Below, in pieces: positions 1,991 through 60,088 of a stretch of 64,000 nucleotides of DNA. Every line of letters begins with the position of its first letter. Position 1 is the first letter of the stretch. Position numbers and translations under genes: made by a program. The notes beneath the pieces are model-generated. The model was given only the letters and a program-made list of their open reading frames with translations, made no database searches and was not told where the DNA came from. The stretch lies in NCBI GenBank assembly GCA_013387215.1, contig WARW01000001.1, positions 119,301-183,300 on the forward strand, read 5' to 3'. Source of the stretch: Patescibacteria group bacterium (GTDB lineage: Bacteria > Patescibacteriota > Microgenomatia > UBA12405).

Positions 1991-2001
1991 GTCCTATTCT
2001 A

Positions 2002-5450: not shown

Positions 5451-5460
5451 TTTGTTCCAC

Positions 5461-5495: not shown

Positions 5496-5515
5496 TACTT
5501 ATTAAAAAGTAAGAA

Positions 5516-9398: not shown

Positions 9399-9412
9399 AA
9401 AATATAAAAAAG

Positions 9413-9486
9413 TAGCAGGGGCGGGAATCGAACCCGCGACCTTAGCGTTATGAATGCTACGCTCTAACCATCTGAGCTACCCTGCC
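9413..9486 (-). tRNA. tRNA-Met (anticodon CAT), elongator-like; tRNA-Ile2(LAU) not excluded
   Basis: Reverse complement folds as GGCAGGG-TA-GCTC-AGATGGTTA-GAGC-G-TAGCA-TTCATAA-CGCTA-AGGTC-GCGGG-TTCGATT-CCCGC-CCCTGCT-A with anticodon CAT. One A-C mismatch closes the anticodon stem; the first acceptor pair is a G-U wobble. Confidence 0.7.
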
Positions 9487-9666
9487 GTACTCGCTATTAT
9501 ATCAAAATTATTTTAAAGTCTCCCTTGCTTAAGGCAATCAAATTCAAAGGAAATTTTAGTAATAACAGAGTCAGGATACAAAAAAGCCGTCAAATTAATG
9601 ACGACCTCTCTGTTTCAATATTCGTTTGGACAAGTAGTAACATAAACGATAGGTTTATGTTCTTTG

Positions 9667-9736
9667 TTGCGGGGCCAGGAGTTGAACCTGGCCTGTGAGA
9701 TTATGAGCCTCACGTGCAGCCGTACACTACCCCGCA
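9667..9736 (-). tRNA. tRNA-Met (anticodon CAT), initiator-like
   Basis: Reverse complement TGCGGGG-TA-GTGT...TGAGG-CTCATAA-TCTCA-CAGG-CCAGG-TTCAACT-CCTGG-CCCCGCA-A. The CTCATAA anticodon loop and the 3' end GGTTCAA.TCC..CCCCGCAAC closely resemble bacterial tRNA-fMet. Position 1 is U, not C, so the 1-72 pair is not the classical C-A mismatch. Confidence 0.6.
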
Positions 9737-21523: not shown

Positions 21524-21599
21524 TCCCCTGTAGCTCAGTCGGTAGAGCGTCCGCCTGTTAAGCGGCAGGTCCTTGGTTCGAGTCCAAGCGGGGGAGCCA
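21524..21599 (+). tRNA. tRNA-Asn (anticodon GTT), CCA encoded
   Basis: TCCCCTG-TA-GCTC-AGTCGGTA-GAGC-G-TCCGC-CTGTTAA-GCGGC-AGGTC-CTTGG-TTCGAGT-CCAAG-CGGGGGA-G-CCA. Closely resembles canonical bacterial tRNA-Asn. Confidence 0.85.
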
Positions 21600-23177: not shown

Positions 23178-23459
23178 AAAATAAATTAAAAAATAAAAAT
23201 ACCCTCGCTGGTGCAACCAGAACTTATACAGCTCTGTCCAACGAGGGTATTTCTAAGTTGTATAAATTGTTCTGGTTGCATAATAATTATACTATTTTTG
23301 AATCATAAATTCACTATTTTTCTCCTAATAAACCAATAATATTAAATAGTTATTAAAGTAATAGTTACATTAATAAAATTAACCTTATAAGTAATAAATT
23401 ATTATTAATTTATTAAAGTAAAAGTTACTCTATAGTTAGAGTTACTATATACATAGTTA

Positions 23460-33506: not shown

Positions 33507-35063
33507 TTAAAACCCACAAACAGCAGTCCTGATTGAATCTAGGACGGGGAGCAAGTTGCTTGTTAATATAAGTGATTTTTGTTTGATCAGCTCAGCCACT
33601 AAAGGAGAATATTCCACACTTACAATGTTTTTATTATCCACATTAATTCTATTGAAGAAAAAATTTAAATATCTTCTTTTAAGAAAAACGGGGGAGTTAG
33701 AATAAGTTTTTGGGATATTTCTTGTAATGGAGAGCACTTCTGAAAGCAAATCAAAATCAAATTCTCTATTCGTATCCAATTTAGCCAATTCAGTATTTAC
33801 ACAATAAATATCATTCTGAATAATCGGATTTTGTGCTTTATAGTCTTCAGGTTCAATAGTTTCATCAAGTAAACGTGCCAATAAAATCTCAGCCTTTTTA
33901 GTTAACTCATTCTTCCTTCTCATAAGTCTATTTCTTTCCTTATCCTCTTCCTTTTTTCGCTCTTTTAGATATCTCTTTATTTTTACGACTAAAGCATTTG
34001 TAAACGCTTTTGAAAATTTAATATTTTGGAAATAGTTTTCAACCTTTCCTTCTAATTCATTTACTTCAACGCTTGGAGCATCACACGGAAACCTTTTGGC
34101 GCAATGATATATGCCATATTTTCCATCCCATTTTGCAAACTTAACATTATCATAATGATATTCTGCGGTATATCTCTGACCGCAACGATCACAAAAAATA
34201 ACGCCTCTTAAAAGGAAATCGTATTTTCTTTCCCTTATAATAAAATTTCTATGTTTAGCAGCTACCTGTTGGCACAAATCGAATGTCCGTTTAGAAATCA
34301 AAGGAATATGTTTACCAAGTTTTTGCTGCCCTTTCCATTGCATTAGACCATAATAAAAAGGATTGGTTAGAATTTTATTCATTGTGGAATGTGCTAATGG
34401 TTTTCCAGTTCTTGTTCTTAACCCCTTTTTTGATAAAAAGCTAATAAGACGAAACAAACTATAATTACCAGTCGAATATTTTTTAAAAGCAAGTGTAATA
34501 AAAGGACTAATTTTCTTATCGATTACAACTATTCCTTTATTATTCTTCCTTTGATTTTTGTAACCTAAAGGTGCCCATCCAGGCCACCAACCTTCTTCCC
34601 ATTTTCGGTCTAACCCTCTTTTAGTTTTTCTACTCAGGTCTTCTGAATAAAATTGATTTATACCTGCCATAAATGTATCCAACATCTTTCCTTCTGGAGA
34701 TTCGTCAAGCATAGGCTGTACAACCGAGATTAGTCTTGTGCCCACCGCTTTTATTCTTTCTTTAATTAAAAAATGGTCTGTTGCATTACGAGCGAATCTA
34801 TCGGTGTTATATACAATTATTGCTGCAGGTTTTATTGTATCCACCTGCTCTAACATTTTTAGAAATTCAGGTCTGTTTGAAACCGTAGCACTTTGACCTT
34901 CATCAACAAACGTATTTAAAACATTGTAATGTTGCCTTTTAGCCTCTTTTAGACAAATATCTTTTTGAGCATCAATAGAGTACCCTTCTTTTGCTTGTTC
35001 TTCAGTAGAAACTCTACAATAAATAAAACAATTTAATTTATTATTATCGTTTTCCATATCCAT
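33507..35063 (-). CDS. large serine recombinase 2
   Basis: N-terminus FIYCRVSTEEQAKEGYSIDAQ (catalytic Ser), recombinase domain and zinc ribbon (CDRCGQ...YHC). C-terminal tail PVLDSIRTAVCGF is encoded antisense to the relic tRNA 3' half, parallel to recombinase 1. Confidence 0.8.
   Translation of the reverse strand: MDMENDNNKLNCFIYCRVSTEEQAKEGYSIDAQKDICLKEAKRQHYNVLNTFVDEGQSATVSNRPEFLKMLEQVDTIKPAAIIVYNTDRFARNATDHFLIKERIKAVGTRLISVVQPMLDESPEGKMLDTFMAGINQFYSEDLSRKTKRGLDRKWEEGWWPGWAPLGYKNQRKNNKGIVVIDKKISPFITLAFKKYSTGNYSLFRLISFLSKKGLRTRTGKPLAHSTMNKILTNPFYYGLMQWKGQQKLGKHIPLISKRTFDLCQQVAAKHRNFIIRERKYDFLLRGVIFCDRCGQRYTAEYHYDNVKFAKWDGKYGIYHCAKRFPCDAPSVEVNELEGKVENYFQNIKFSKAFTNALVVKIKRYLKERKKEEDKERNRLMRRKNELTKKAEILLARLLDETIEPEDYKAQNPIIQNDIYCVNTELAKLDTNREFDFDLLSEVLSITRNIPKTYSNSPVFLKRRYLNFFFNRINVDNKNIVSVEYSPLVAELIKQKSLILTSNLLPVLDSIRTAVCGF
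33513..33550 (+). other. degenerate copy of the tRNA-Asn 3' half (attR-like relic)
   Basis: CAGCAG-TCCTGATTGAATCTAGGACGGGGAGC aligns with tRNA-Asn positions ~39-73 (CGGCAGGTCCTTGGTTCGAGTCCAAGCGGGGGAGC). It has the same orientation as the tRNA and is overlapped antisense by the C-terminus of the second serine recombinase. Confidence 0.45.
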
Positions 35064-42235: not shown

Positions 42236-42823
42236 ATGAACCAAGTAGCAAATGAAATCGCATTAGGAATTTTAAAAGCTATTCCTTGGTGGCTTTGGGT
42301 TATTATCATAATTTTTGCCATTCTTGGACCAGAAGAGAATATCCGTCGCCGTCGTCATTCATATAAAACAAAAGGTATTTTAGAAATCTTTGTTGATTGG
42401 ATTTGGTATCAATTAGCTGAAAAGAAAAAAATTGAGAAATCAGGTATTAATAATATTGACCGTATGAGCGGTTATCAATTTGAAAAATATTTAATCAATC
42501 TTTTTATTCGTCTTGGCTACAAAGTTCGTCATGTTGGAAGTAATTACTATCAGCATCATGGTGATTTTGGGGCCGACTTAATTGTTGAAAAAGATGGTGT
42601 TAAAACCGCCGTTCGAGCCAAAAACTATAATAATCTAGTGGGTATTGAAGCTGTTCGTCGAGTTCTTGGTGCTATTAACTATTATCAATGCCAAAGGGGA
42701 ATTGTTGTTACTAATAATTTCTTTTCTTTCGACGCTAGAACTCAAGCTAGTGTGAGTAATGTTGAATTGTGGGATCGAAATAATCTTATTGATGTTATTT
42801 CTAAATTAAACACCAATAAATAA
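42236..42823 (+). CDS. membrane-anchored Mrr-cat (restriction endonuclease-like) domain protein
   Basis: N-terminal TM helix plus RRRRH; Mrr_cat-like core (QFEKYLINLFIRLGYKVRHVG...GDFGADLIVEKDGVKTAVRAKNY). Paralog of 45063..45740. Confidence 0.55.
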   Translation: MNQVANEIALGILKAIPWWLWVIIIIFAILGPEENIRRRRHSYKTKGILEIFVDWIWYQLAEKKKIEKSGINNIDRMSGYQFEKYLINLFIRLGYKVRHVGSNYYQHHGDFGADLIVEKDGVKTAVRAKNYNNLVGIEAVRRVLGAINYYQCQRGIVVTNNFFSFDARTQASVSNVELWDRNNLIDVISKLNTNK

Positions 42824-42852: not shown

Positions 42853-44496
42853 TCAATAACTACTTTTTATATAGTAGTAACCAATCAATCCTATGATAAT
42901 TATCCAAAACAAATAAATACTTATAGCTCCCGCAATAATTAAAACAATACCAATCAAAACTATATTCCAATATTTTTTTTGATTTGTTTCATATTTTTGC
43001 CTTGTTTCTCCAAAATAATCCAAAATATATTGCCACCTATCCGTTGCTTTTATATATCCAAGCATCTTTTGTAACTCTGACTCTTCAATCTGTTTGATTT
43101 GTATTTTTTCTTCGTTGGTTAGTTTCTTCTTACTGCTTTGTAAAGATTTTTCATTAATATACCTCACTAAACCAGCATCACCTTCTCCAAAAAATAAGAC
43201 TGCTTTTGATTTTTTACCGTCTCTTCCAATTCTTCCCATTTGCTGGTAATAATCTTCAATGTTTTGAGGAATACACCAATGTATAGCAATTCTAATATCA
43301 GGAATATTTACACCCATTCCAAAAGCCGAGGTACAAATTAATACTTTCCATTTTGATGGAACAGTTCCTTTGTATTCATCTTGAATTCTTATTTTGTCTT
43401 CTCTGTTTTGTTTGCCATAAAAGAATTCGCAGTTAACATCTTTTCTTACGAGTTCCCTCCAAACCAAACTTCCTATTTTGATTGTTGGCACAAATATAAT
43501 GATTCTTTCATCGTTGTATTCACTAATTATATTAATAATTAAATTTATTTTTTCTTCATCAACTTGTTCCTTTTGACCGTCAAATATTTTTACATATAAA
43601 TCAATTTCTGGTCTGTAAAATCCGGTCACAAAAACAGCAGGATGAACCAGTCCTAATGAAGTAATAATATTTTGTTGTACACGTTTTGAAGCTGAAGCAG
43701 TTAAAGCTATGGTTTTGGGATACCCCAACACCTTTCTTAACTCTTTAAGTTGTGCATAAGAAGGTCTAAAACTTCGGCCCCATTTATCAATACAATGTGC
43801 TTCATCAATAGCTAATAAATCAAATTCATTTTGTAGAAGGGGATGATTAAGTTTAATTTTATTGTCCTGGTATTTATCAAAAAATTGTTCTGGTGCCACA
43901 TAAATAAAACGAAACAATTTTTGAGCAAACATACTTAATCTATTTTCTTTTTCTTCTTGTTCCAAGTCACTATTAATAAATGTTGCAGGAATTCTTTTTT
44001 CCCATAAATTTTCCACCTGATCTTTCATTAATGCTTTCAGCGGTGTAATTACCATTGTTTGATTTTCCAAAGCGATGCCTGGTAATTGAAAGCAAACTGA
44101 TTTTCCTGAACCTGTTGGCATAACAACTAAAACATCTCTACCATTAAGCACAGCTTTAATAATTTCTTGTTGATGTAATCTAAATGTTGTTTTGTGGGTA
44201 AGAAGATAAAGTAATTTTTTTAAATCTTTCTGTTCGGGAAGTTGTAATACATTTCTAAAAAGATTGTTTAATCTAAAAACGATATCTGAAAAATATTTTG
44301 TTTGATATTCGATGTGTTTGCTTGAGTGGCATGTTCGACACAATGTTACAAGATTTGACGGATTATTTTCACCACCCCATTTTTCTGGGATTACATGATG
44401 AATATTTAAATTCTCTTTACTGCCACATTCGATGCACTGATGATGGTCTCTATTTAAAACTAAATTTCTTATTTCGTCCGATAAATATATTTTCAT
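42853..44496 (-). CDS. HNH endonuclease fused to RecQ-family DEAH helicase, with C-terminal TM helix
   Basis: N-terminal HNH (HHQCIECGS...NIHHVIP...NLVTLCRTCH). Helicase motifs I VVMPTGSGKS, II DEAH, V TSAFGMGVNIPDIR, VI QQMGRIGRDG. Hydrophobic C-terminal 35 aa. Confidence 0.7.
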   Translation of the reverse strand: MKIYLSDEIRNLVLNRDHHQCIECGSKENLNIHHVIPEKWGGENNPSNLVTLCRTCHSSKHIEYQTKYFSDIVFRLNNLFRNVLQLPEQKDLKKLLYLLTHKTTFRLHQQEIIKAVLNGRDVLVVMPTGSGKSVCFQLPGIALENQTMVITPLKALMKDQVENLWEKRIPATFINSDLEQEEKENRLSMFAQKLFRFIYVAPEQFFDKYQDNKIKLNHPLLQNEFDLLAIDEAHCIDKWGRSFRPSYAQLKELRKVLGYPKTIALTASASKRVQQNIITSLGLVHPAVFVTGFYRPEIDLYVKIFDGQKEQVDEEKINLIINIISEYNDERIIIFVPTIKIGSLVWRELVRKDVNCEFFYGKQNREDKIRIQDEYKGTVPSKWKVLICTSAFGMGVNIPDIRIAIHWCIPQNIEDYYQQMGRIGRDGKKSKAVLFFGEGDAGLVRYINEKSLQSSKKKLTNEEKIQIKQIEESELQKMLGYIKATDRWQYILDYFGETRQKYETNQKKYWNIVLIGIVLIIAGAISIYLFWIIIIGLIGYYYIKSSY

Positions 44497-45062: not shown

Positions 45063-45740
45063 ATGACACAAACAGTTGGTATGGGTGACATAATTTGGCA
45101 AATAGTTAAAGGAATTCCTTGGTGGTGTTGGATAATTATACTAATAAGTGCTGTTGCAAGCCCGACTACTAGAAGAAGATATAAAAGACGTAGGTATTAT
45201 AGTAATTACAATAAATCTCTATTCGATGAAATAACTGATTCTATGGTTAATTTTATATTGAACTGTTTCAAAAGAAATTTTTCAGTAAAAAGACAAACTT
45301 TTTCGCAAACATACGCAACTAATTCCACTCAACAATCTACTATGAACCAAGAATCAAGTATCTGGGAAATTGATCAAATGACTGGTAGAGAATTTGAAAA
45401 ATATTTAGAAAAATTATTTATTAAACTAGGTTACAAAGTAAATAGGGTTGGAACGTGTTGGTATGACCATAGAGGGGATTTTGGTGCCGATTTGATTGTT
45501 GAAAAAGATGAAATTAAAACTGCAATTCAGGCTAAAAATTATAAAAATAATAATTTAGTAGGAATTAATTCTGTAAGAGAAGTTATCGGTGGTCTTAGTC
45601 ATTATAATTGTCAAAAAGCTGCTGTTATAACAAACAGTTATTTTACTAATGATGCTAAAGTTCAAGCAGGGGACAGTAATGTGAAATTACTTAATAGAGA
45701 TGATTTAATTAAACTCATTTCACGAACTGAAATAAAATAA
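45063..45740 (+). CDS. membrane-anchored Mrr-cat domain protein (paralog)
   Basis: Same architecture as 42236..42823 (TM, RRRYKRRR, Mrr_cat core REFEKYLEKLFIKLGYKVNRVG...GDFGADLIVEKDEIKTAIQAKNY); ~60% identical over the C-terminal domain. Confidence 0.55.
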   Translation: MTQTVGMGDIIWQIVKGIPWWCWIIILISAVASPTTRRRYKRRRYYSNYNKSLFDEITDSMVNFILNCFKRNFSVKRQTFSQTYATNSTQQSTMNQESSIWEIDQMTGREFEKYLEKLFIKLGYKVNRVGTCWYDHRGDFGADLIVEKDEIKTAIQAKNYKNNNLVGINSVREVIGGLSHYNCQKAAVITNSYFTNDAKVQAGDSNVKLLNRDDLIKLISRTEIK

Positions 45741-49103: not shown

Positions 49104-49657
49104 AAACTGGTGCGGTAAAGTTTTTGAGTTTCTTGCCAGCGGTTTTGATCTAAAGATTCGTCTCTATTTAAAACTTCTTGTGTCACAAAATCATAAGAAA
49201 ACCAAATTCTTTTACCATCGCCATTTTTAGCGTCACGAATGCAAGTTAAACGAAGCATAGCCATTTCAGTTCTAGAAATCGGCTCACTTTCCGGTTCTAT
49301 GGTTAAATGCAAAATTTTTTCCTCATTCAATTTAGTGTCAAAGACGACCATTCCCTCTAAAAGTTTTTCTAAATCAGTGTCAAAATTTTGCAACTCATTG
49401 CTTTCTACTGGTATATAAGAAATATTTTCATCAAATTTTTTCTTTCCTTTCAAGACAAATGGTATAGGTTTTTTATCTTTACAATATTCGATTATTTTTT
49501 TCTTAACCTCTTCTGCATTATCCTTAATGCTAAATGGTCTAACAAAAGTCACATGTAAGTGTTTTTCGTTTTGTGGATTGTCAGAAATTGTTGTTCTTAA
49601 ACCAGGTAATTCGTTTCCATGAATATGTGTTTCCAAAAAATACCTTTCTTTCGACAT
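49100..49657 (-). CDS. 2H phosphoesterase superfamily protein (LigT-like)
   Basis: Two H-x-T/S-x motifs (HVTFV and HLTIE) spaced ~80 aa apart. Confidence 0.45.
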   Translation of the reverse strand: MSKERYFLETHIHGNELPGLRTTISDNPQNEKHLHVTFVRPFSIKDNAEEVKKKIIEYCKDKKPIPFVLKGKKKFDENISYIPVESNELQNFDTDLEKLLEGMVVFDTKLNEEKILHLTIEPESEPISRTEMAMLRLTCIRDAKNGDGKRIWFSYDFVTQEVLNRDESLDQNRWQETQKLYRTSF

Positions 49658-49700
49658 TTAGATGCATTTTAACATAGATAATCATAATTGATGATTAAAT

Positions 49701-49865
49701 TTGCATATTTATCACTTTAGGTGTAAGATTCTGGCAAAAATATAATTAACTCAGTTTCGCACTGAACATTAATTATCTTTGTTCTTTAACAACTAGATCT
49801 TTTGAAAATAAGAGGTTAACCCCTCATTATATAAATAATCATATAAAAATAAAGGGAAAAGAAGG
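49701..49865 (+). promoter_or_regulatory. sigma-70-type promoter (TTGCAT-17-TAAGAT) plus ~130-nt conserved structured leader; paralogous copy at 56655..56826
   Basis: -35 TTGCAT 49701-06 and -10 TAAGAT 49724-29. The leader contains hairpins TCAGT-TTCGC-ACTGA and GAGG-TTAACC-CCTC that are conserved, with loop changes, in the second copy. Confidence 0.45.
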
Positions 49866-51998
49866 GTGATTTTTGTGAAGAGAATTATAATTTATCTTAC
49901 TATTGTGTGTCTCTTGATACTTTCAATGGCTAACACTTGCTATGGCATTGTCCTTAAGAAACCGGTTCCAGCTCCCATTTATAAGATTTACGGTTTAGAT
50001 TATTCCCCTTATATTGGAGCTAATCAAAGTCCAGGAAACAGTATTAGTGAAGACCAGATCAGAAAAACTCTGATGCAGATCAAGCCATATACGACTTGGA
50101 TTCGAACTTATGGCTGCACAGATAGTTTAGCCAATGTTGGTAAAATAGCCCATAGTTATGGACTAAAAACTGCTATTGGCGCTTGGTTGAGTAAGGATTT
50201 GGTTGCAAATGACAAAGAAATTGCCAATTTGATTAAAATTGCCAAAGCAGGACAAGCCGATCTTTTGATTGTTGGTAGCGAAACTTTGTATCGTCATGAC
50301 CTGACTGAAACTCAATTGGTTCAGTACATTAATAAGGTCAAAAACGAAGTACCAAAGATTCAAGTTGCTACGTCTGATACGGCTAATATGTTTATTCTGT
50401 ATCCATCAATCATAAATTCTATCGACAGTGTTCTTGCTAATATTTATCCTTATTGGGATGGTCAGGACATAAATAATGCTATGACTTCTCTAAACTCCCA
50501 ATATGTGCAGCTAAAAAAAATTGCTAAAGACAAAAAGGTTATTATTTCAGAAACAGGCTGGCCAAGTTCAGGTAACACTATTAACAAAGCTGTTCCTTCC
50601 GTGGAAAACGCAGCATTTTATTTCAAGAATTTCATTTCTTGGGCTAAAGCTACCAAAACCCAATATTTTTATTTTGAAGCCTTTGATGAACCCTGGAAGG
50701 GAACACCTCAGGCTCCTCAAGAAGCTCATTGGGGTATTTGGGATAACAACCTAAAGATGAAGTCCAAAATGATTGATGTTTTTCAAGGAAAAACCATCAA
50801 AAATAATTGGACTACTCCTAATCAAAAGTCGGTTTCCTTACCTGATCTAACCTTAGACAGTATTGCTTCCAATAGATATCTTGGCTCTTATGGAGATGCA
50901 AGCATATCAAGCAAGACAACCAGCAATTTTACCCTTACTTTAGGTAAAGATGTTAATACATGGGGTTCAGTTGCGGTTGATGTTGGTACTTGGGTAGGTG
51001 AGAAAGCTCTAGATTTATCTGGTTATAAGTATGCCATTATTCGTGCCAAAGGTGCCAAAGGTGGCGAGAAGTTTAGATTTGGTCTAGGTGTTGGTCCGAC
51101 AGATTATTTGTACGATAAAGGTTTAACTACTAATTGGCAAAACATAGTTATTGATCTTTCAGTTAGTATAAGAAACCTTAAGGATGTCAAACAGATTGGA
51201 TTTGAAATTGGTAGTCAATGGACAGGTAATAAAGTAGGGACAAAAATTTATATCGACGGTATAACGTTTAGTACTTCTAAAACACTAAAACCTGTACCTA
51301 CACCAACCCCGAAACCGACAATGACACCCAGTCCGACTCCGAGGCCTACGGCTACACCAAGCCCAACACCAAGTCCGACTCCTGTTCCAACCCCCAGTCC
51401 TACGCCCGTTACTACACCTAGCCCTACACCAACCCCGAAACCGACAATGACACCCAGTCCGACTCCGAGGCCTACGGCTACACCAAGCCCAACACCAAGT
51501 CCGACTCCGAGGCCTACGGCTACACCAAGCCCAACACCAAGTCCGACTCCTGTTCCGCTTCCAGATCTTCCAATATCAAGCATCACAGGCAACAGTTTTT
51601 GTTCCTATGGTGACGCTGGTTTATCCGATTATGCTAGTAATAGCTCTTTCGCAATAAACTTGCTCAGAAACACTGATACTTGGGGTTCGGTTGCAGTCAA
51701 TGTTGGTACTGGTGCTAATGTAACTGCTTTAGACCTATCTGGCTACAAGTATGCGATTATTCGTGTCAAAGGTGCTGTCGGAGGCGAAAAATTCAGATTT
51801 GGTCTGGGTTATGGTCCTACTGACTTTTATTACAATCAAGGTTTAACAACAGATTGGCAGGATATCAAAATTGATATAAGCAATTTTTCAAGAAACTTGA
51901 AAGATGTTAAGCAGATCGGTTTTGAAATAGGCAGTCAGTGGACTGGTAATGCTGTTGGGACCAAAATATATATTGGTGGAATAAAATTCACCGATTAA
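49866..51998 (+). CDS. secreted glycoside hydrolase family 17-like (beta-1,3-glucanase-like) enzyme with PT-rich linkers and two copies of a ~130-aa C-terminal domain
   Basis: Signal peptide. The catalytic domain ends in the [11 protein letters not shown] signature (the ETGWPS motif of GH17). Then a tandem PT-rich linker and two ~130-aa domains (SYGDA...TWGS...[29 protein letters not shown]...GLTT.WQ.I.ID...[25 protein letters not shown]). Confidence 0.55.
51296..51560. repeat. 126-bp tandem repeat (2.3 copies) encoding a Pro/Thr/Ser-rich linker
   Basis: Unit ACACCAACCCCGAAACCGACAATGACACCCAGTCCGACTCC... at 51300-51383 repeated identically at 51426-51509, plus a partial third copy; lies in-frame inside the GH17 gene. 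Confidence 0.65.
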
Positions 51999-52020
51999 TT
52001 TTCAAAAGATCTCAGGTTGA

Positions 52021-52070
52021 TACCGCTGGTTTACACAGTAATGTGTACATAAATCCAGCGGTATTTTTTT
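52021..52070 (+). terminator. rho-independent terminator (paralogous to the one at 58907..58946)
   Basis: TACCGCTGG...inner hairpin TACACAgtaaTGTGTA...CCAGCGGTA followed by TTTTTTT. Confidence 0.55.
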
Positions 52071-52131
52071 AAAATCTTTTCTTACATTTTTCTTTAAACA
52101 ATCTCATAATTAGAAGTTATCTTAAAAAGAT

Positions 52132-52467
52132 ATGGCCCAAGAAATTAAATTAATTGTTTATCCCGTTAAAGACATAGAAACTGCCAAGAAATTTTATTCA
52201 AAATTCTTAGGAGTTGATCCTTATGTTGACGGTCTTTATTATGTCGGATTCAGAATAGGTGATCAGGAAATAGGTTTGGATCCAAACTCCATATCTCCCA
52301 CACCTATTGGGTACATAAACGTTGAAAATATAAGCACTTATTTGCAAGACATGGTGGATGCTGGAGCCCAAATTGTGGAAGACATAAAAGACGTTGGACA
52401 AGGATTACAGGTTGCTCAAATAAAAGATGCCGATGGCAACATTTTAGGTCTCAGGCAATTTCCTTAA
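52132..52467 (+). CDS. glyoxalase/bleomycin-resistance (VOC) family protein
   Basis: 111-aa single VOC module pattern (KDIETAKKFYSKFLG ... DADGNILGL). Confidence 0.55.
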   Translation: MAQEIKLIVYPVKDIETAKKFYSKFLGVDPYVDGLYYVGFRIGDQEIGLDPNSISPTPIGYINVENISTYLQDMVDAGAQIVEDIKDVGQGLQVAQIKDADGNILGLRQFP

Positions 52468-52547
52468 TCATTTAACTTTTTAATAGCCCCAAGGTGTTTT
52501 TTTCTTATTTCCATTGATCCCTTTGCCATAATTAGTTATCATAAATT

Positions 52548-53003
52548 ATGAACTTGAAAGTGCTTGTGGGCAGCGGAGAAAAAATCGGACGGCTTGTTTT
52601 GCCGTTTTTAATAATTGGTTTGGTTTTGAATATTCTAGATCCTTCTTTGTTCAGCGTTGGTGGTCCCTCAATGGTTTTAAAAACAGTTTCAATTATTGTT
52701 TTGATTCCGGGAATAATAAATTGGGCTTGGTCAGTAATTTTAATCTTAACCAAAATACCTCAAAAAAAACTCATCACCACTGGTCCTTATTCCTTAGCTA
52801 AACATCCTTTATACACTGGTGTCGCCTTGCTAGTCCTGCCTTGGGTGGGATTTCTTCTTAACACCTGCTTGGGTGTCTTAATTGGCATCATTGTTTATAT
52901 TGGTTCAAGAATATATTCGCCTGAAGAAGAAAAAATATTGTCAAAAACTTTTAGCAATTCCTGGAATCAATATTGTAAAAAAGTGAAAATACCGTGGCTG
53001 TAA
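52548..53003 (+). CDS. isoprenylcysteine carboxyl methyltransferase / PEMT-like membrane methyltransferase
   Basis: Four TM helices and LITTGPYSLAKHPLYTGVALLVL (the HP.Y.G motif of the ICMT/PEMT/NnrU family), plus a C-terminal EEE motif. Confidence 0.5.
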   Translation: MNLKVLVGSGEKIGRLVLPFLIIGLVLNILDPSLFSVGGPSMVLKTVSIIVLIPGIINWAWSVILILTKIPQKKLITTGPYSLAKHPLYTGVALLVLPWVGFLLNTCLGVLIGIIVYIGSRIYSPEEEKILSKTFSNSWNQYCKKVKIPWL

Positions 53004-53139
53004 ATAAACATCTAATAATATAAAAAGACACCTTAGGATTTGGTACTTTGTTTGCGTTTCCTCTTCTCGTTGCTTGGCAAATAAATAAAATAAACACGTA
53101 TCTTGTTGATAAATAATCAATAAAAATATATCATTAAGT

Positions 53140-53370
53140 ATGACTAAAGAACAAAATACTTCAGAATGCTGCGGTGGAAATAAAAAACATACTTATCATC
53201 ATTATAATCATGGCAGTTCAGACGCCATTTATGGGCTGGGTATCATTGGCTCTTTATTTTATTTTTTGCAGGGCGCCACTACTTTTACAGCGGTAATCAT
53301 TGGTATTGGAAAAGCAATTTTTTGGCCAGCTTTCTTAATATTCAGAGTACTCACAATTCTGCATCTCTAA
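53140..53370 (+). CDS. small membrane protein with Cys/His-rich N-terminus
   Basis: SECCGGNKKHTYHHYNHGSS followed by two TM helices; possible metal-binding tail. Confidence 0.3.
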   Translation: MTKEQNTSECCGGNKKHTYHHYNHGSSDAIYGLGIIGSLFYFLQGATTFTAVIIGIGKAIFWPAFLIFRVLTILHL

Positions 53371-53413
53371 ATTTATCTTAAGATTTTTTCCAAATACGCC
53401 TTACAATTAAAAA

Positions 53414-53986
53414 ATGTGCGACCAATACGCTTTCCATCCAAGCCCAGATTTTTATTCCCGATTTTCTTTAAATAATAAACTGCCGGCTCTTTTAAGTGTT
53501 AACAAAGCCGCTCCAGACAGTTTTATGCCAATTATTTTTTGGGAAAATGGCTCAAAAATAGATATTATGAGGTGGGGATTTGTACCTCAATGGGCAAAAA
53601 ATCTGGATTTTGGCACCAGATTGTTTAATGCCAAAGCTGAAACTGTTTTGGAAAACAAAGCCTATTGTGGTTCATTCAATTCTTGCCGTTGCCTTATTCC
53701 GGTAAATAACTTTTCTTTTTCTAAAAGCAATCGGTCTTTTAAGCTCAAATACGAATCTATGTTTTGTCTGGCTGGTCTTTATTCGCTTTGGGAATCGCCC
53801 GATGGCAGCTTTTTGCCCACCTTCACGATTTTGACCACTCATTCTAATTATTTGATTCGGCCTTTTTCCGACCGTATGCCAATTGTTATTTCTAAAAAAG
53901 ATGAAAGGCTTTGGCTCAACCCCATAGCACCGTCTGGAAAGTTATTTCCCTTAATGCGGCCTTATTCTTTGGAACTAATGATCTAA
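53414..53986 (+). CDS. SOS-response-associated peptidase (SRAP/YedK/DUF159)-like abasic-site processing protein
   Basis: Begins MC (catalytic Cys2 after Met removal) and contains IMRWGFVPQWAK (the mRWGl.P.W motif of SRAP). Confidence 0.55.
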   Translation: MCDQYAFHPSPDFYSRFSLNNKLPALLSVNKAAPDSFMPIIFWENGSKIDIMRWGFVPQWAKNLDFGTRLFNAKAETVLENKAYCGSFNSCRCLIPVNNFSFSKSNRSFKLKYESMFCLAGLYSLWESPDGSFLPTFTILTTHSNYLIRPFSDRMPIVISKKDERLWLNPIAPSGKLFPLMRPYSLELMI

Positions 53987-54050
53987 AATTCATTTTATAA
54001 ATTATTTATCAACCAATTGAATTTTGCCCTTAATTAAGTAAAATTTATAC

Positions 54051-54740
54051 ATGGAATATATAAATAATATAATCAGCGATAATGTCACTGATGAACCTAC
54101 TATTCCTCAACCAGTTCAGCCAATAATTACTCCGCCAAATAACCCGCAGCCAATTTTGGAACAACCACCGATCATCCCTCAGAATAACAAAAATAAAAAC
54201 ACAAAATTTTATATTATTTCCGGTGTTTTGGTTTTATTTTTATTAACGCTTTGCTATCTATTAGCTTTTCAATCTAAAAGAATCACCAGCCTGCTTCCCC
54301 AAAAGAAAACAACTCCTGTTCCAATTCCGACTGTTACTGTTGTCAAAACTACTCCTACTGCTAGTTCTAAAGATGCTTATTTAAAAATGAAAGCAGAAGA
54401 AGACCATCTTAATACTTTTGATGAATATTTAGTTTTTTTGAATAAATACGGCACCAAAGAAAAAAATGAAGAAGTAAATAAAGGTTTGGGTCAAATAAAT
54501 TTACTGCCTACTGGTTTTAAAGAGCAATTGATGAGTATGGTTAAATCAGGATCGCCTTTACTGAAAGACATCACTAATGTGGATGAAAAAGTTGAAGATA
54601 ATGTTTCCCTCTTAAAAATTACCAGCAATAACCCGCAACTTCAAGGAACCGTCAAACTTATTCTTGAAAACGGAATCTGGAAACTTGATAGTGAGGTTTG
54701 GGATCAATCACTAAAACCAAGTCCAAGTGTCACACCATAA
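54051..54740 (+). CDS. membrane-anchored protein with Pro-rich N-terminal region
   Basis: Proline-rich cytoplasmic N-terminus, single TM helix and an extracytoplasmic domain. Confidence 0.35.
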   Translation: MEYINNIISDNVTDEPTIPQPVQPIITPPNNPQPILEQPPIIPQNNKNKNTKFYIISGVLVLFLLTLCYLLAFQSKRITSLLPQKKTTPVPIPTVTVVKTTPTASSKDAYLKMKAEEDHLNTFDEYLVFLNKYGTKEKNEEVNKGLGQINLLPTGFKEQLMSMVKSGSPLLKDITNVDEKVEDNVSLLKITSNNPQLQGTVKLILENGIWKLDSEVWDQSLKPSPSVTP

Positions 54741-54763
54741 TCCAAGTCAGCTACAATATTGAA

Positions 54764-55072
54764 ATGATAAATTCTTGTAAAGCCTGTGGAAAATGCTGCA
54801 AATTATTTTTAATAAATCTCTCTCAAAAAGAATATCGATCAAAAGAATATCAAACCATGTTCCAAGAATACGGTTTTATTGATGATTTCTCTAAAGCCAG
54901 AAAATGCGGAGCTAATTTTTTAGCCAAAAATATCGATGAAAGTTGTATTTATTTAAAAGATAATAAATGTAGTATTCATCAATCTCGTCCTCAAGTTTGC
55001 CGTCATTTCTTTTGCACTTCAAAATCTAAAAAATTTGCCGGTATGATCCAAATCATTAAATCTAGTCTTTAA
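54764..55072 (+). CDS. YkgJ-family putative Fe-S/zinc cluster protein (CxxCGxCC)
   Basis: MINSCKACGKCCKLF...C...CRHFFC pattern typical of UPF0153/YkgJ. Start set at the internal Met just downstream of the preceding gene stop. Confidence 0.45.
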   Translation: MINSCKACGKCCKLFLINLSQKEYRSKEYQTMFQEYGFIDDFSKARKCGANFLAKNIDESCIYLKDNKCSIHQSRPQVCRHFFCTSKSKKFAGMIQIIKSSL

Positions 55073-55085
55073 ATATTTTTAAGCA

Positions 55086-55116
55086 CCAAAAATCCCCTCA
55101 AAAGAGGGGATTAATT
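55086..55116 (-). terminator. rho-independent terminator of the RRM gene
   Basis: In minus orientation AATCCCCTC-TTTTGA-GAGGGGATT followed by TTTTT. Confidence 0.55.
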
Positions 55117-55133
55117 GAAGTTTTAAAAACAAA

Positions 55134-55457
55134 TTAGAATCTGTTTCCGCCGCCGAAACCACCGCGGTTGCCGCCATTAGAGTAATTATCTCTTCGTGGA
55201 GGTCTTTCTTCCATTGGTCTGGCTTCATTAACCTTGACGGTACGACCCTCAAGTTCTTTTTCGTTCCACATCTCAATTCCAGCATTTGCTTCTTCGTCAG
55301 TTGACATTTCTACAAATCCGAAACCTTTTGATCGACCGGAAAATTTATCTTTAATAACTATTGCTGATACAACTGTACCAACTTGAGCGAACGCTGCTCT
55401 TAAACCTTCATCAGTGGTTTGAAAAGACAAGCCGCCGACATACAACTTTTTTGCCAT
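55134..55457 (-). CDS. RRM-type RNA-binding protein with glycine-rich tail
   Basis: RNP2 LYVGGL and RNP1 KGFGFVEM motifs; C-terminal RGG/GGF tail. Confidence 0.7.
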   Translation of the reverse strand: MAKKLYVGGLSFQTTDEGLRAAFAQVGTVVSAIVIKDKFSGRSKGFGFVEMSTDEEANAGIEMWNEKELEGRTVKVNEARPMEERPPRRDNYSNGGNRGGFGGGNRF

Positions 55458-55827
55458 TATTTTGCAAACTTATAAATGTAGCGACCTCTCTTTACATCAA
55501 AAATCTCTACATCGCTATTATACAGCACATATTAATTTATAGTTAATGATTCGTTTTGCCGACACTAATAAAGTCAAAAGCCGATTCATTCATTAAATCG
55601 TTGCTTATCTAAATTTATTTAAGCTCAATTTATACCTAAGTTTGACATTAATTTTATCGTTTAGTAAAATCACACACTTTTAAAATAAACTAAAGCGTTT
55701 ATTTAAAAAGAATTTGTACCTTAAAAAAGAAAGAGAGCTGCCAAAATAGGTATTATCCTTTGTGTATTTCATACACCTTGGTATTGCCTATTTTGGTGAT
55801 AAAAATAAATTGATTGGAGGATTTTTT

Positions 55828-56280
55828 ATGAGTAACTTGTTAAAAGTAGCTATTGGTATTGTGGCAACTGTGCTTCTTGGTTTCTTCTTTTTTTGGTTAT
55901 TGTGTTTGAATCATGTCAGCGTCAATCACATTGGTATTGCCTATGACTCTGGAAATGGCACTATAACTATACAAAAGAAACCTGGTTGGTATTTAACCTC
56001 GCCGATGGTAAGAACAACTTGTTTAAGCACTGTCCCAATGAAAGTCACCATTCCCTCAGAAGCCCAAGTAATCATTTCTAAAGTTGTTCGGTTTAAACCA
56101 GAAGGTGTCGATGAATATATTCGGCTTCAAGGTTTTTATTACAACATGGATTCAAGCCTAAATAGCGTATTACTTGGCTATGCTTTTTCCGGAAAAGACT
56201 ATCCTTTCCTAGAAATAATGCAGGAAGCTGCTCCTGAAAATATTAATGTGGACCCGCTTTATAAGGTAAAAGGTAACTGA
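55828..56280 (+). CDS. membrane-anchored protein with SPFH/band-7-like N-terminal segment (short)
   Basis: GGAGG RBS 8 nt upstream of the ATG at 55828. TM helix, then HIGIAYDSGNGTI...KPGWYLTSPMV resembling the start of SPFH domains; too short for a full SPFH. Confidence 0.35.
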   Translation: MSNLLKVAIGIVATVLLGFFFFWLLCLNHVSVNHIGIAYDSGNGTITIQKKPGWYLTSPMVRTTCLSTVPMKVTIPSEAQVIISKVVRFKPEGVDEYIRLQGFYYNMDSSLNSVLLGYAFSGKDYPFLEIMQEAAPENINVDPLYKVKGN

Positions 56281-56282
56281 TT

Positions 56283-56546
56283 ATGAAAAAGTATTTGATT
56301 TTAAATCGATGGAAACTATCGGTTGTTACAATTTGCACTTTAATAATTATTGTAATTTTATTTAATAAGGCTTGGATTGTGAATCTTGTTTGGATGAATG
56401 CTGCCGCAATTGGCCATACTTTTCACCAACAAGGTCCTCACACTTCAATTGCTATTTTGATAGTAGCTTTTTACATTTTCATTATTTGGAACCTGTTCTG
56501 GAAAATTTATTCTCTTATCGCCCGGATTAAACCATTTATTAGCTGA
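56283..56546 (+). CDS. small membrane protein
   Basis: 87 aa, three TM helices; starts 3 nt after the upstream stop. Confidence 0.3.
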   Translation: MKKYLILNRWKLSVVTICTLIIIVILFNKAWIVNLVWMNAAAIGHTFHQQGPHTSIAILIVAFYIFIIWNLFWKIYSLIARIKPFIS

Positions 56547-56654
56547 CTCTCTTTTTTTTATTATTGACCTATCAAAGCTTGGTTTTTAGCCAATCCATTT
56601 GATGGGTCTTTTTTTTTATATAAAAATAAAAAAACTTCACAAACTTCCAAAAAT

Positions 56655-56826
56655 TTGCATATTTACGACTTCGGGTGTAATATCCTGGCAAAACAATAAT
56701 TAGTTCAGTTTTTGCACTGAAATTTAACTATTGGTACTTTAACAACTAAAGATCTTTTGAACTCAAAAATATGAGGTTTAGCCTCTTTATATATAGCTCC
56801 AAATAAAAATAATATAAAAGGGATAG
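56655..56826 (+). promoter_or_regulatory. paralogous promoter (TTGCAT-17-TAATAT) and conserved leader upstream of the LRR surface-protein gene
   Basis: -35 TTGCAT 56655-60 and -10 TAATAT 56678-83. The leader aligns with 49701..49865, including hairpins TCAGT-TTTTGC-ACTGA and GAGG-TTTAG-CCTC. Confidence 0.45.
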
Positions 56827-58875
56827 GTGATTTGTATGAAAAAGCTAAGTTTTATCTTAGTTGTTTTCCTTATTCTGTCATTTTTGGCCCCGTCCAGTTT
56901 TGCTGCCACCAAAACTACTGATTCAACAGTAATTAAGTTCGCCAGCAAAGTCTTGGAAAAAGCAGTCAGAGAAGAAATCAAAAAACCAACAGGAAATATC
57001 TTTAAAAAAGATGTTTTATCTATTAAAAGTTTAGAAATAAACTTTACTCCAATTGGAAAAATAGATGGCATCGAAAATCTCCAAAATTTAGTTTATCTTC
57101 ATCTTGAAAATGGTGAAATAAGAGACATTAGTCCGCTTAAATCATTAAAAAAACTTGAAGATCTTGACTTGTGGGATAACTATATTACCGATCTTACCCC
57201 ATTATTAGGATTAACTAAATTAACAAGCTTGGAACTTAACGATAATTATTTTTGCGACCTTACTCCGCTTAAAGGCTTGATAAATCTTACTCATCTTTAC
57301 TTGGTAAACAGTAGATCTGGTAATAAAATCTCAGATATTACTCCACTTTCCAACCTGAAGAATATAATTTCAATTGCCTTGGCTTGTAATAATGTAAGTA
57401 ACGTTGAGCCCTTAAGTAAGCTTCCCAAGATTCAAGAATTGTATCTACATCACAATCAAATCCAAAATGTAGCACCGCTTGGTAAAATAAAAACCTTGCA
57501 GATATTATATTTGGAAGATAACCCGATCACAGACTATAAACCATTAAAAGCTATTTACAGTAAGCTCTACAAAAAAGATTTTACTTTAAACAGTCCGGTT
57601 GCAACTCCAAAACCAAGTTCCACTCCAGACTCTACTCCAACGCCAGAAATTACTCCGACTCCTGGACCTTCATTAATTCCAACTCGGATTTTGGATCCAA
57701 CCAAAGTAATCACATTTCCCGACAAAAATTTTGAGCAAACCATCAGAAAAGCGATCAACAAACCTACAGGAGATATCCTTAAAAAGGATATTTTTTCCAT
57801 CACTCAGCTTTATGGATGGAGTGGAATAAAAAGTATTGAAGGGATTCAAAATCTCGAGAATTTGACTACTATTGAAATTCTTGACGGTCAAATTTCCGAC
57901 TTAACTCCTTTAAAATCGCTCAAACATTTAACCCGTCTCAATCTTTGGAACCAGCGTATTACAGACATTAGTCCACTAGCCAGTATACCCACTCTTGAAG
58001 AGCTTATTCTTAGTGATAACTACTTTTTTGACCTTAGTCCCTTAAAAGGCTTGGTTAATTTAAAAAAACTTTCTATTTTTTACAGCCGGATTGGCGCTGG
58101 ATTGTCAGATATTTCTCCAATATCATCTTTGACAAATCTTGAAACCTTGTCCTTAGCTGATAATGTCATCACCGATTTAAGCCCTTTAAGTAAATTGCCC
58201 AAAATACGGGAACTATATTTAATGAATAATAAAATCAGCAATGTTGAGCCATTGAGTAATCTCAAAACTTTAAAAGTTTTATATCTTAAAGATAATCCGG
58301 TTGTTAGCTTTGCACCTCTAAAAAATATGTTTAGTCAATTAATCGATAAAGATTTTACTCTATCAAGTCCAACGTTTTCGCCTCCAGTTGCTATTAACTA
58401 TTCCAGCACTGATCTGCTTATGGCTGATATCTCCAAATATGGCTTTTGTCATTATGGCGATGCTGTCATAGCAGATGAGAAAAGTAACAGCCAGTTTACT
58501 ATGATTTTAAAGAAGAATGATGATACCTGGGGTTCGATTGCTAGGGATATTGGTGAAGGTCCGGGTGGAAAAAATATGGATTTATCCATGTATAAATATG
58601 TAATTCTTCACATGAAAGGCCTAAAAGGTGGCGAAGAGTTCATGTTTGGTTTTGGCTATGGGCCGACAGATTATTATTATAGTCAGGGTTTAACTACTGA
58701 TTGGCAGGACATTGTTATAGACATTTCTAATAACAAAAGTCTTAAAAGTGCTTATCAATTTGGGTTTGAAATTGGAACTCAATGGACAAATAATGAAGTC
58801 GGTGCGACTATTTTTATTGACGGCATCAAATTTTCCAATCAGTTGCCAACTGGACCCTACACCACCCCTAAATAG
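56827..58875 (+). CDS. secreted leucine-rich-repeat (internalin-like) protein with internally duplicated LRR module and the shared ~130-aa C-terminal domain
   Basis: Signal peptide, then two ~230-aa blocks of 22-residue LRRs (LxxLxxLxLxxNxIxDIxPL) each preceded by a KPTGdI.KKD cap and separated by a PT-rich linker. The C-terminal domain is homologous to the two in the GH17 protein. Confidence 0.6.
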   Translation: MICMKKLSFILVVFLILSFLAPSSFAATKTTDSTVIKFASKVLEKAVREEIKKPTGNIFKKDVLSIKSLEINFTPIGKIDGIENLQNLVYLHLENGEIRDISPLKSLKKLEDLDLWDNYITDLTPLLGLTKLTSLELNDNYFCDLTPLKGLINLTHLYLVNSRSGNKISDITPLSNLKNIISIALACNNVSNVEPLSKLPKIQELYLHHNQIQNVAPLGKIKTLQILYLEDNPITDYKPLKAIYSKLYKKDFTLNSPVATPKPSSTPDSTPTPEITPTPGPSLIPTRILDPTKVITFPDKNFEQTIRKAINKPTGDILKKDIFSITQLYGWSGIKSIEGIQNLENLTTIEILDGQISDLTPLKSLKHLTRLNLWNQRITDISPLASIPTLEELILSDNYFFDLSPLKGLVNLKKLSIFYSRIGAGLSDISPISSLTNLETLSLADNVITDLSPLSKLPKIRELYLMNNKISNVEPLSNLKTLKVLYLKDNPVVSFAPLKNMFSQLIDKDFTLSSPTFSPPVAINYSSTDLLMADISKYGFCHYGDAVIADEKSNSQFTMILKKNDDTWGSIARDIGEGPGGKNMDLSMYKYVILHMKGLKGGEEFMFGFGYGPTDYYYSQGLTTDWQDIVIDISNNKSLKSAYQFGFEIGTQWTNNEVGATIFIDGIKFSNQLPTGPYTTPK

Positions 58876-58906
58876 TTTTCAAAAGATCTTTGGTTTATAC
58901 CGTGGG

Positions 58907-58946
58907 TTGACACTTTTGTGTTAATAAATCCCACGGTATTTTTTTA
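58907..58946 (+). terminator. rho-independent terminator (paralog of 52021..52070)
   Basis: TACCGTGGG...TTGACACttttGTGTTAA...CCCACGGTA followed by TTTTTTT. Confidence 0.55.
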
Positions 58947-59010
58947 TCTCTCCCGCAATTAATTGATTGCATTTACAATCTTTTAATTTTTGGGAGAGAT
59001 AACCTTTTAG

Positions 59011-59802: not shown

Positions 59803-60088
59803 TTTGCAGACTAACCGAGCATAAAAAATGTTTATTAAAAATCAATAAGTTCTTCTTAATAAATGTGTATATGAATAAAACGGTATTTTTTTTGTAAAAA
59901 TTATTATCTTGCAAAGATAGGGCATAATTAGTAAACTTGGGCGTGATTAATAATACAGATGCCGGTCCTAGCTCAAGTATTCTGTTTTATCTTTCGCAGG
60001 CTCATTAAAATTGCGGAAAAGGTATCTAAATTAAAAGGGGGTCAATACACCAGGTCAATTTAAAACACTAAAGAAAGGTGTGTTGACG

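Follow-up and report, generated by a model that had tools for sequence, protein, structure and literature searches.

Few bacterial mRNAs are known whose untranslated regions (UTRs) at the 5' and 3' ends interact, and a review of functional 3'UTRs names RNAIII/hld, icaR and hbs only (PMC7821165). In the hbs mRNA of Bacillus subtilis, a 14-nt sequence just 3' of the 5' hairpin pairs just upstream of the terminator (-19 kcal/mol), and the helix overlaps an RNase Y cleavage site and limits cutting there (PMC5737220). Mutation of either side speeds the decay of the primary transcript, and the compensatory double mutant restores the wild-type pattern (PMC5737220). In the icaR mRNA of Staphylococcus aureus (PMC3868564), a UCCCC anti-Shine-Dalgarno motif in the ~390-nt 3'UTR occludes the ribosome-binding site (RBS) and creates an RNase III site (PMC7821165). 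Functional 3'UTRs, that of hbs included, are generally not conserved even among close relatives (PMC7821165). In this study, we analyzed a 64-kb stretch of DNA (the window) from a Patescibacteria group bacterium (contig WARW01000001.1), in which a GH17 gene (gene A) and a leucine-rich repeat (LRR) gene (gene B) are preceded by the same promoter and leader. On RNA-level regulation in Patescibacteria, nothing was found in a search of the literature on these bacteria, riboswitches and noncoding RNA. We consider it fairly probable that the repeated leader is the 5' half of a conserved transcript-end module, consisting of a hairpin, a helix between the 5' and 3' ends and a terminator, that acts like the hbs mRNA.

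Predicted pairing between the two ends of the transcription unit

Both leaders contain a conserved stretch (AGATCTTTTGAAAAT in gene A, AACTAAAGATCTTTTGAA in gene B) that matches by reverse complement a stretch after the stop codon of the same gene (TTTTCAAAAGATCTCAGGTTG and TTTTCAAAAGATCTTTGGTT, respectively). Read as its reverse complement, the leader box AGATCTTTTGAAAA gives the 3' box TTTTCAAAAGATCT. For the 10-mer ATCTTTTGAA, 1.1 occurrences are expected in the window and six are found, four of which are these leader and 3'UTR sites, in opposite orientations. When contiguous complementarity between the 5' and 3' flanks was counted for the 74 open reading frames (ORFs) of at least 100 aa in the window, gene B (18 bp) and gene A (15 bp) ranked first and second, with a median of 9 and a maximum of 13 bp for the others. 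The third-longest match, 13 nt in length (AAGGTGTTTTTTT / AAAAAGACACCTT), lies around an ICMT/PEMT-like methyltransferase gene (52548-53003).

Related units were found by a protein search with the full GH17 protein of gene A; word-indexed protein searches with the C-terminal domain gave almost no matches, and usable relatives were obtained only via the full GH17 protein. The module set comprises six units from five lineages and one gene lineage: the gene A unit (winA) and the gene B unit (winB) of the window, and four units from other metagenomes, L033, L034, L046 (= L047) and L037 (= L038, Shapirobacteria), of which three are GH17 genes and one is a two-gene operon with GH17 last. Pairing was assessed by RNAduplex restricted to the boxes and by a count of contiguous helices; folding entire leaders with entire 3'UTRs as duplexes, and likewise ORF flanks, was dropped because the energies were inflated and uninformative.

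In all six units the cognate boxes are predicted to form duplexes of 18-23 bp with energies of -15.8 to -22.4 kcal/mol (RNAduplex). The mean duplex energy is -19.2 kcal/mol for cognate and -13.0 kcal/mol for non-cognate boxes, and none of the other 720 permutations of 3' over 5' boxes, the true assignment being counted among the 720, scores as well as the true one. When the shared core is left out, only two of the 720 do as well as the true assignment, itself included. The helix core common to the units spans ~12-14 nt, and the extensions beyond it differ from gene to gene, their 5' and 3' sides being CAAC and GTTG in winA, AACTAAA and TTTGGTT in winB, TCTGTT and AACAGA in L034, AATCTGTAA and TTGCAGATT in L033, AATTTGA and TTAAATT in L046, and AATCTAA and TTAGATT in L037. 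Within the core helix, L037 carries a compensatory change from C-G to A-U (column pair 23/60). The helices contain five non-Watson-Crick pairs, each of them G-U when read on the sense strand, and in every one of the six units the duplex of the sense strand exceeds that of the antisense strand in stability. A constraint at the level of RNA predicts such a one-sided distribution of wobble pairs, which a palindrome at the level of DNA does not.

In an alignment of 5' box, linker and 3'UTR, pair counts for the core helix together with the terminator show 90% of the cells paired and 11 pairs changed on both sides. Pairing as high as that observed was reached in none of 500 shuffles, and slid controls gave 35-51%. 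With the same alignment as input, RNAalifold, unprompted, returned the helix (18 pairs) and a two-tier terminator, 13 of the 35 pairs covarying. Co-folding of leader and 3'UTR adds the helix while keeping the leader hairpins HP1 and HP2 and the terminator, with a gain of -10.7 to -20.2 kcal/mol, and in the co-folds the terminator abuts the 5'/3' helix.

The L037 unit separates the ends of the transcript from those of the GH17 gene, the product of which is 53% identical to that of gene A. Here a 187-aa gene lies 40 nt upstream of GH17, and promoter, HP1 (TTCAAC/GTTGAA), invariant motif, 5' box and HP2 precede the 187-aa gene, with none of the leader directly before GH17 and with the 3' box and terminator after GH17. 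Since the boxes bracket a two-gene transcript, they track transcript ends and not the ORF.

The module would thus be ordered as promoter, HP1, the motif GTTCTTTRAYAA, 5' box, an optional HP2, an A-rich spacer, the Shine-Dalgarno sequence (SD), the ORF or ORFs, 3' box and terminator. In the mRNA, the two boxes are predicted to pair into a helix of 18-23 bp that would close the whole coding region into a loop. The SD is located ~15-55 nt downstream of the 5' box, outside the helix. A switch model, with the SD concealed by the 5' box up to the transcription of the 3' box, was not adopted, as it is predicted only in L033 and L034, the only units in which mimicking the helix alters the predicted accessibility of the SD.

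Elements of the leader and the 3' flank, and the genes between them

The same ~170-bp region had been noted before the GH17 and LRR genes in a first-pass annotation, with TTGCAT-17-TAAGAT/TAATAT promoters and with two stem-loops that keep their stems and differ in their loops. These observations hold. The blocks 49697-49865 and 56651-56826 share 82% mean column identity over ~250 columns (MAFFT), starting at the promoter; both promoters can be read directly, both stem-loops are present as described in both copies, and Pfam identifies the products as a GH17 protein and an LRR protein. Beyond this, both genes have the signal peptide, a ~130-aa C-terminal domain and the entire 3'UTR in common, which had been missed. 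In the leader itself, the two parts with the best conservation, the invariant motif, predicted to be single-stranded, and the box predicted to pair with the 3'UTR, had likewise gone unnoticed. A repeat finder pairs 49697-49757 with 56651-56711 at 84% (family D8) and links the 3' ends of the genes by the families D3 (the shared C-terminal domain), D15 and D6 (75 nt after the stop codons). If up to 3 mismatches are allowed, the window contains exactly two occurrences of the 20-mer GGTGTAAKATYCTGGCAAAA, where 0.02 would be expected. Upstream, the similarity ends abruptly at the -35 region, and MAFFT detects none beyond it.

The upstream regions of all six units contain, positionally aligned, TTG(C/A)NN, a spacer of 17 nt and TAA(G/T)AT, as in sigma-70-type promoters. 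Because the window promoters match the sigma-70 consensus in only 7 of 12 positions, they are absent from the list of a consensus scan. Start sites and 3' ends of the transcripts were placed from the sequence. HP1 is a 13-bp stem-loop that begins ~6-8 nt from the predicted start, TCAGT following ~15 nt after the start. In the six-sequence alignment (A4), 89% of the cells in its 13 pairs are paired, against at most 47.5% in slid controls; in the upper stem, three of six pairs have changed on both sides in a compensatory way, and five lower-stem pairs vary by G-U. Judged by this alignment, HP1 is a genuine conserved RNA hairpin. The idea that the leader is an RNA under structural selection is thereby supported for HP1. 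HP2 is lacking in L033 and L034, and HP1 in L033. HP2 has homologues, with some variation, in winB, L046 and L037. As each of the two hairpins is lost in some orthologues, both appear to be accessories, and neither is the indispensable core.

Never lost in any of the six units are the promoter, the invariant motif, both boxes, the SD and the terminator. Each of the six leaders has the motif conserved, and in their predicted co-folds with the 3'UTR it stays unpaired; in folds of the leader alone, it is sometimes paired with a purine-rich sequence near the start codon. An A-rich spacer precedes the GGTGAT-type SD, the GGTG of which is invariant in all six leaders. Small upstream ORFs at ATGAGG, seen by eye in winB, L046 and L037 (11, 16 and 10 codons, respectively), were dismissed because they are absent in winA and their frame is not conserved.

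The 3' flanks of gene A and gene B are homologous and consist of a box after the stop codon, a long hairpin and a T-run. Box and terminator wholly occupy the 3'UTR of 70-88 nt, the box lying 0-3 nt past the stop codon in five of the six units and 17 nt past it in L046. From gene A to gene B, the outer stem of the terminator carries compensatory changes (CTGG/CCAG to TGGG/CCCA). Over the alignment this outer stem is 95% paired with four compensatory pairs and the inner stem 89% paired with three, and in all six units the predicted hairpins (-14 to -22 kcal/mol) are followed by T7-T9, as in Rho-independent terminators. A third match (73%, family D6) to the distal half of the terminator, AAACGGTATTTTTTTT, is located at 59857-59893 of the window; it was rejected as a further terminator since it has no complementary stem, and is either a chance match or a decayed remnant. 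The features of both window copies are listed in Table 1.

Table 1. Predicted features of the gene A and gene B transcription units (positions in the window).
Feature	Unit	Positions	Strand	Description
Promoter	gene A	49701..49729	+	TTGCAT (49701-49706), 17-nt spacer, TAAGAT (49724-49729); predicted start ~49736
HP1	gene A	49743..49775	+	A/U-rich lower stem, upper stem TCAGT/ACTGA (49751-49765, loop TTCGC); RNAfold
Invariant single-stranded motif	gene A	49781..49792	+	GTTCTTTAACAA
5' box	gene A	49790..49809	+	CAACTAGATCTTTTGAAAAT; RNAduplex with 3' box 19 bp, -20.0 kcal/mol
HP2	gene A	49812..49825	+	GAGG-TTAACC-CCTC; SD-like sequence paired to CCUC
Shine-Dalgarno sequence	gene A	49864..49870	+	GGGTGAT
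Coding sequence	gene A	49875..51998	+	GTG start; signal peptide, GH17, CBM-like domain, Pro/Thr linker, second CBM-like domain
3' box	gene A	51998..52019	+	ATTTTCAAAAGATCTCAGGTTG; first base is the last base of the stop codon
Two-tier intrinsic terminator	gene A	52020..52070	+	ATACCGCTGG..TACACA-GTAA-TGTGTA..CCAGCGGTAT, then T7; RNAfold -22.7 kcal/mol
Promoter	gene B	56655..56683	+	TTGCAT (56655-56660), 17-nt spacer, TAATAT (56678-56683); predicted start ~56690
HP1	gene B	56697..56730	+	upper stem TTCAGT/ACTGAA (56704-56721); TCAGT-TTTTGC-ACTGA at 56705-56720; RNAfold
Invariant single-stranded motif	gene B	56734..56745	+	GTACTTTAACAA
5' box	gene B	56744..56761	+	AACTAAAGATCTTTTGAA; RNAduplex 18 contiguous bp including one U-G, -22.4 kcal/mol
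HP2	gene B	56773..56785	+	GAGG-TTTAG-CCTC; terminator-like in scan listing
Shine-Dalgarno sequence	gene B	56825..56831	+	AGGTGAT
Coding sequence	gene B	56836..58875	+	ATG start; signal peptide, two LRR blocks with Pro/Thr linker, CBM-like C-terminal domain
3' box	gene B	58878..58895	+	TTCAAAAGATCTTTGGTT; starts 2 nt past the stop codon
Two-tier intrinsic terminator	gene B	58897..58945	+	ATACCGTGGG..ACAC-TTTT-GTGT..CCCACGGTAT, then T-run

The other single-gene units differ in their hairpins. L034, with a protein 60% identical to that of gene A, has the promoter, an HP1 with a compensatory change (CCAGT/ACTGG), the motif, both boxes and the terminator, and L033 (64%) has the same elements without HP1; neither contains HP2. 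In L046 (52%), a consensus TTGACA-17-TAATAT promoter is followed by an HP1 with further changes, the motif, the 5' box and an HP2 (AGAGGC/GCCUCU), and the 3' box and terminator are present. The nearest named homologue belongs to a metagenome-assembled genome of Candidatus Shapirobacteria, with 49% identity over two thirds of the gene A protein. The GC-rich homologues L035, L036 and L045 possess the domain resembling a carbohydrate-binding module (CBM) and show no trace of the UTR module.

Pairwise identity among the units is 66-88% for promoter plus leader and for the 3'UTR, against 36-64% for the encoded proteins. At such protein divergence, neutral non-coding DNA would be unalignable, which argues that the UTRs are under selection. 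The first-pass view that selection, and not a mere duplication, accounts for the similarity of the leaders is thus supported by their retention in four other metagenomic lineages. Conservation ends at the -35 region on one side and at the T-run on the other, which is the footprint of a transcription unit.

Two covariance models were built, R1 from the -10 hexamer to the 5' box including HP1, and R2 from the 3' box and the terminator. The training instances scored 81-97 bits with R1 and 73-92 bits with R2, and the L033 leader that lacks HP1 scored 23.5 bits. The covariance-model search that the first-pass annotation had proposed was run on ~147 kb, namely the 64-kb window and 83 kb of related contigs; only the known instances scored highly and no further copies were found, everything else remaining at or below 35 bits. 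The best of these lower matches lie on the opposite (minus) strand, at 51998-52079 for R1 and at 49736-49808 for R2, and were discounted as new copies, as they arise from the complementarity of the boxes and the shared layout of a hairpin next to a box. The proposal that the leader controls a family of secreted proteins therefore finds no support in the window and the 83 kb of related contigs, and the element, as read from these sequences, is confined to one gene lineage of GH17 with CBM and one LRR paralogue. A scan of a genome collection with GGTGTAANATNCTGGCAAAA gave 32 matches in unrelated taxa, none with the rest of the element, and a scan of a metagenome collection with the 3'UTR pattern (box, ATAC, GTATTTTTT) gave six matches with no hairpin or ORF end; both sets were set aside as chance. 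With Rfam 15 at gathering thresholds, only four tRNAs were detected in the window, and at E up to 5 the region 49600-59000 gave three sub-threshold chance matches, none on the sense strand of the element.

The domain common to both proteins is encoded at 50840-51280, 51565-51995 and 58445-58872 and has no Pfam match. AlphaFold2 predicts the shared C-terminal domain as a beta-sandwich (predicted local distance difference test, pLDDT, 88), which is closest to CBM30 and CBM11 (Foldseek E ~1e-6, template modelling score, TM, 0.67). The domain is rare: a profile search at E<1e-3 gave 125 representatives out of 1.84 billion. Based on the predicted fold, it may represent a CBM family that has yet to be described and that accompanies GH17 as well as other domains. 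One protein of 679 aa (P0123), with the domain at residues 525-679, matches the gene B product in length and domain position. In its signal peptide and C-terminal domain, the product of gene B is similar to the L034 protein. From these sequence similarities, gene B is best explained as a duplicated GH17 cassette in which the catalytic middle was replaced by LRRs and promoter, leader, signal peptide, CBM-like domain and 3'UTR were kept, so that two different proteins have the same UTRs.

The public gene A protein (P0001, 690 aa) begins at an internal Met (MANTCYG...; region 49866-49928) and thereby loses the signal peptide. The conserved leader and SD and the N-termini of homologues (MKRISVV.., MKKLSLV..) indicate the GTG at 49875 as the true start (707 aa). 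The Pro/Thr linker of gene A (51290-51562), located between the CBM-like domains, is an imperfect tandem array with periodicities of 12, 30 and 126 nt, and gene B has a shorter linker of the same type between its LRR blocks (57596-57664).

Elsewhere in the window, the segment 21524-40000 has a GC content of 27-32% compared with ~35% for the rest, begins beside a tRNA gene (21524-21596) and encodes two large serine recombinases, at 21558-23216 and at 33507-35063 of the minus strand. The segment resembles an integrated mobile element or prophage, or two of them. A 777-aa protein encoded at 11056-13389 (minus strand) matches weakly a TraD-type conjugative coupling protein, and a cluster of three tRNAs (9325-9736) lies near its gene. 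At 42853-44496 (minus strand) an HNH and RecQ fusion is encoded, the first ~70 residues of which match the HNH part of an IscB model (NF040563, E 1e-15). This RecQ-like gene is flanked by small paralogous genes (42236-42823 and 45063-45740) with 70-76% DNA identity in segments of ~200 nt and 45 nt (D5, D14). The valine-tRNA ligase encoded at 2693-4999 (768 aa) covers model positions 1-716 of 863 and lacks the usual C-terminal extension. On the L037 contig, the leader starts ~110 nt downstream of a tRNA-like sequence seen by eye (9030-9105), and an array of six small genes resembling type IV secretion system (T4SS) pilins is located upstream (1-5604).

Possible function and competing explanations

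By analogy with hbs, the module probably governs the lifetime or the processing of the message. The helix, together with HP1 and the terminator, might limit the access of ribonucleases to both mRNA ends, and as in hbs it might also gate a cleavage-prone single-stranded site in the leader. The U/A-rich invariant motif directly 5' of the box is a plausible entry site for an endonuclease. Lifetime or processing would then be set by tying both ends of the message together. Because the 3' box touches the stop codon, a terminating ribosome must melt the helix, and it is tempting to speculate that this melting could couple the control to translation.

Several observations weigh against a transcript-end module of this kind. 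On a translated mRNA, the helix next to the stop codon would be opened again and again by terminating ribosomes. The core of 14 nt hardly varies and is as such compatible with a recognition site in DNA or for a protein. L033 lacks HP1 by a clean deletion, and HP2 is missing from both L033 and L034, which makes the contribution of the two hairpins uncertain. Moreover, the pairing statistics come from a small sample of six units, five lineages and one gene lineage, and the shuffles leave phylogenetic relatedness in.

In a more far-reaching variant, the whole unit might work as a closed-loop mRNA device, in which melting of the helix at the stop codon couples termination to re-initiation on the same message, the ribosome being handed over from stop codon to SD, or opens and closes a ribonuclease gate at GTTCTTTRAYAA. 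We regard this as rather unlikely; if true, a lineage of uncultivated bacteria, probably of the Patescibacteria type, would have a conserved device that functionally parallels the circularisation of eukaryotic mRNA.

The first-pass annotation had favoured a self-contained structured 5' leader, such as a riboswitch, an attenuator or a protein-binding element, with two stem-loops that control a family of secreted proteins in cis. HP1 does covary, HP2 resembles a small hairpin before a U-rich tract and appears as terminator-like in a scan, and the invariant motif could be a binding site for a protein. However, L033 lacks both hairpins and L034 lacks HP2, and promoter, boxes and terminator are nevertheless kept; no Rfam match and no conserved pocket were found, no other genes in the 147 kb carry the element, and a leader of this kind leaves the co-varying 3' partner unaccounted for. 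A riboswitch-like leader in particular is not supported, since there is no indication of ligand sensing or attenuation and no conserved multi-helix junction. Overall, we consider a self-contained leader improbable. The 3' partner could instead act in trans, if box and terminator were released as a ~70-nt small RNA (sRNA) derived from the 3'UTR that pairs by the seed UUUUCAAAAGAUC with its own or paralogous leaders. Such sRNAs usually consist of a seed with a Rho-independent terminator behind it, and cross-pairing between winA and winB (-20.1 and -17.5 kcal/mol) comes close to the cognate values (-22.4 and -20.0 kcal/mol). On the other hand, the gene-specific co-variation of the box extensions favours cognate pairing in cis, the unit is present as a single copy in the sampled contigs of the other lineages and thus has no other target there, and no processing site or internal promoter is evident, which makes an sRNA about as doubtful as a self-contained leader.

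Two explanations appear less likely still. The boxes might be a feature of the DNA, either homology arms or inverted repeats of a mobile cassette, or a palindromic core TTCAAAAGATCTTTTGAA split between the ends as the half-site of a protein. Differing gene neighbours among the window, L033/L034, L037 and L046, the exchange of the cassette middle seen in gene B and the palindrome AGATCT within the core would fit this. Yet the repeats are internal to the conserved block, with promoter and HP1 outside the 5' repeat and the terminator outside the 3' repeat, only one half-site is present at each end, and the five G-U mismatches of the sense strand would be A-C on the other strand, the sense strand being favoured in all six units. 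Neither gene has a recombinase or transposase beside it, the neighbours being a 2'-5' RNA ligase-like gene, a glyoxalase gene and unknowns, and the synteny of L033 and L034 (RuvC, PBP, GH17) indicates vertical descent. The conserved block exceeds both repeats, unlike in a mobile cassette, a miniature inverted-repeat transposable element (MITE) or an insertion sequence (IS); no search was aimed at target-site duplications. We therefore judge a DNA-level feature very unlikely. Equally slight is the chance that the 5'/3' helix is a processing stalk cut by RNase III, by which HP1 and the terminator would be removed and the message matured or destroyed. The helix length is near the size accepted by RNase III, the icaR 5'/3' duplex is cleaved by this enzyme (PMC7821165), and HP2 could become a new 5' stabilizer; the helices are, however, bulged and mostly A-U, and the SD lies outside the helix, unlike in icaR. 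Such a stalk is a sub-variant of the proposed transcript-end module and does not contradict it. The two covariance models are ready for use in finding further examples of the element.

Comparison with known systems

Stabilizer hairpins in the leaders of mRNAs for abundant surface or secreted proteins, such as ompA, aprE and the S-layer gene slpA, act alone at the 5' end of the message. Like these, the window units encode exported proteins and have a long leader before the gene, with a stem-loop near the 5' end. Here, however, one orthologue does without the hairpin, and the partner that is conserved best is located in the 3'UTR. Pairing of flanks around a long RNA is also known from the precursors of rRNA operons, where RNase III processing stalks enclose the RNA in a loop. 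These stalks have much longer stems and yield stable RNAs, whereas the RNA enclosed here is a protein-coding message and cleavage is only hypothetical. From icaR, the module differs in that its SD is not within the helix, and no icaR-type pairing of an anti-SD motif was found.

The closest similarity is to hbs. Both have one or more 5' hairpins, a box of ~14 nt, a complementary box before a Rho-independent terminator and an SD outside the helix, and the duplex energies are comparable (-19 kcal/mol in hbs, -16 to -22 kcal/mol here). In each of the six units, a duplex of 18-23 bp is predicted between the region from HP1 to the SD and the sequence just before the terminator, and natural covariation, as seen in the permutations and the compensatory pairs, argues that this pairing is real. 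The likeness is one of layout, while the class is defined by mechanism, and homology of sequence is not expected. Differences also exist: hbs encodes the HU protein and the genes studied here encode secreted GH17 and LRR proteins, the helix is longer here (18-23 bp), and the 3' box lies against the stop codon, the 3'UTR being 70-88 nt long as compared with ~80 nt in hbs. Furthermore, the module is conserved and co-varies across lineages, in contrast to the 3'UTR of hbs (PMC7821165). Because the functional 3'UTRs reviewed so far are generally not conserved (PMC7821165), cross-lineage 5'/3' pairing with covariation is unusual. The units described here thus provide comparative, and not single-species, support for end-to-end pairing as a selected feature of bacterial mRNA.

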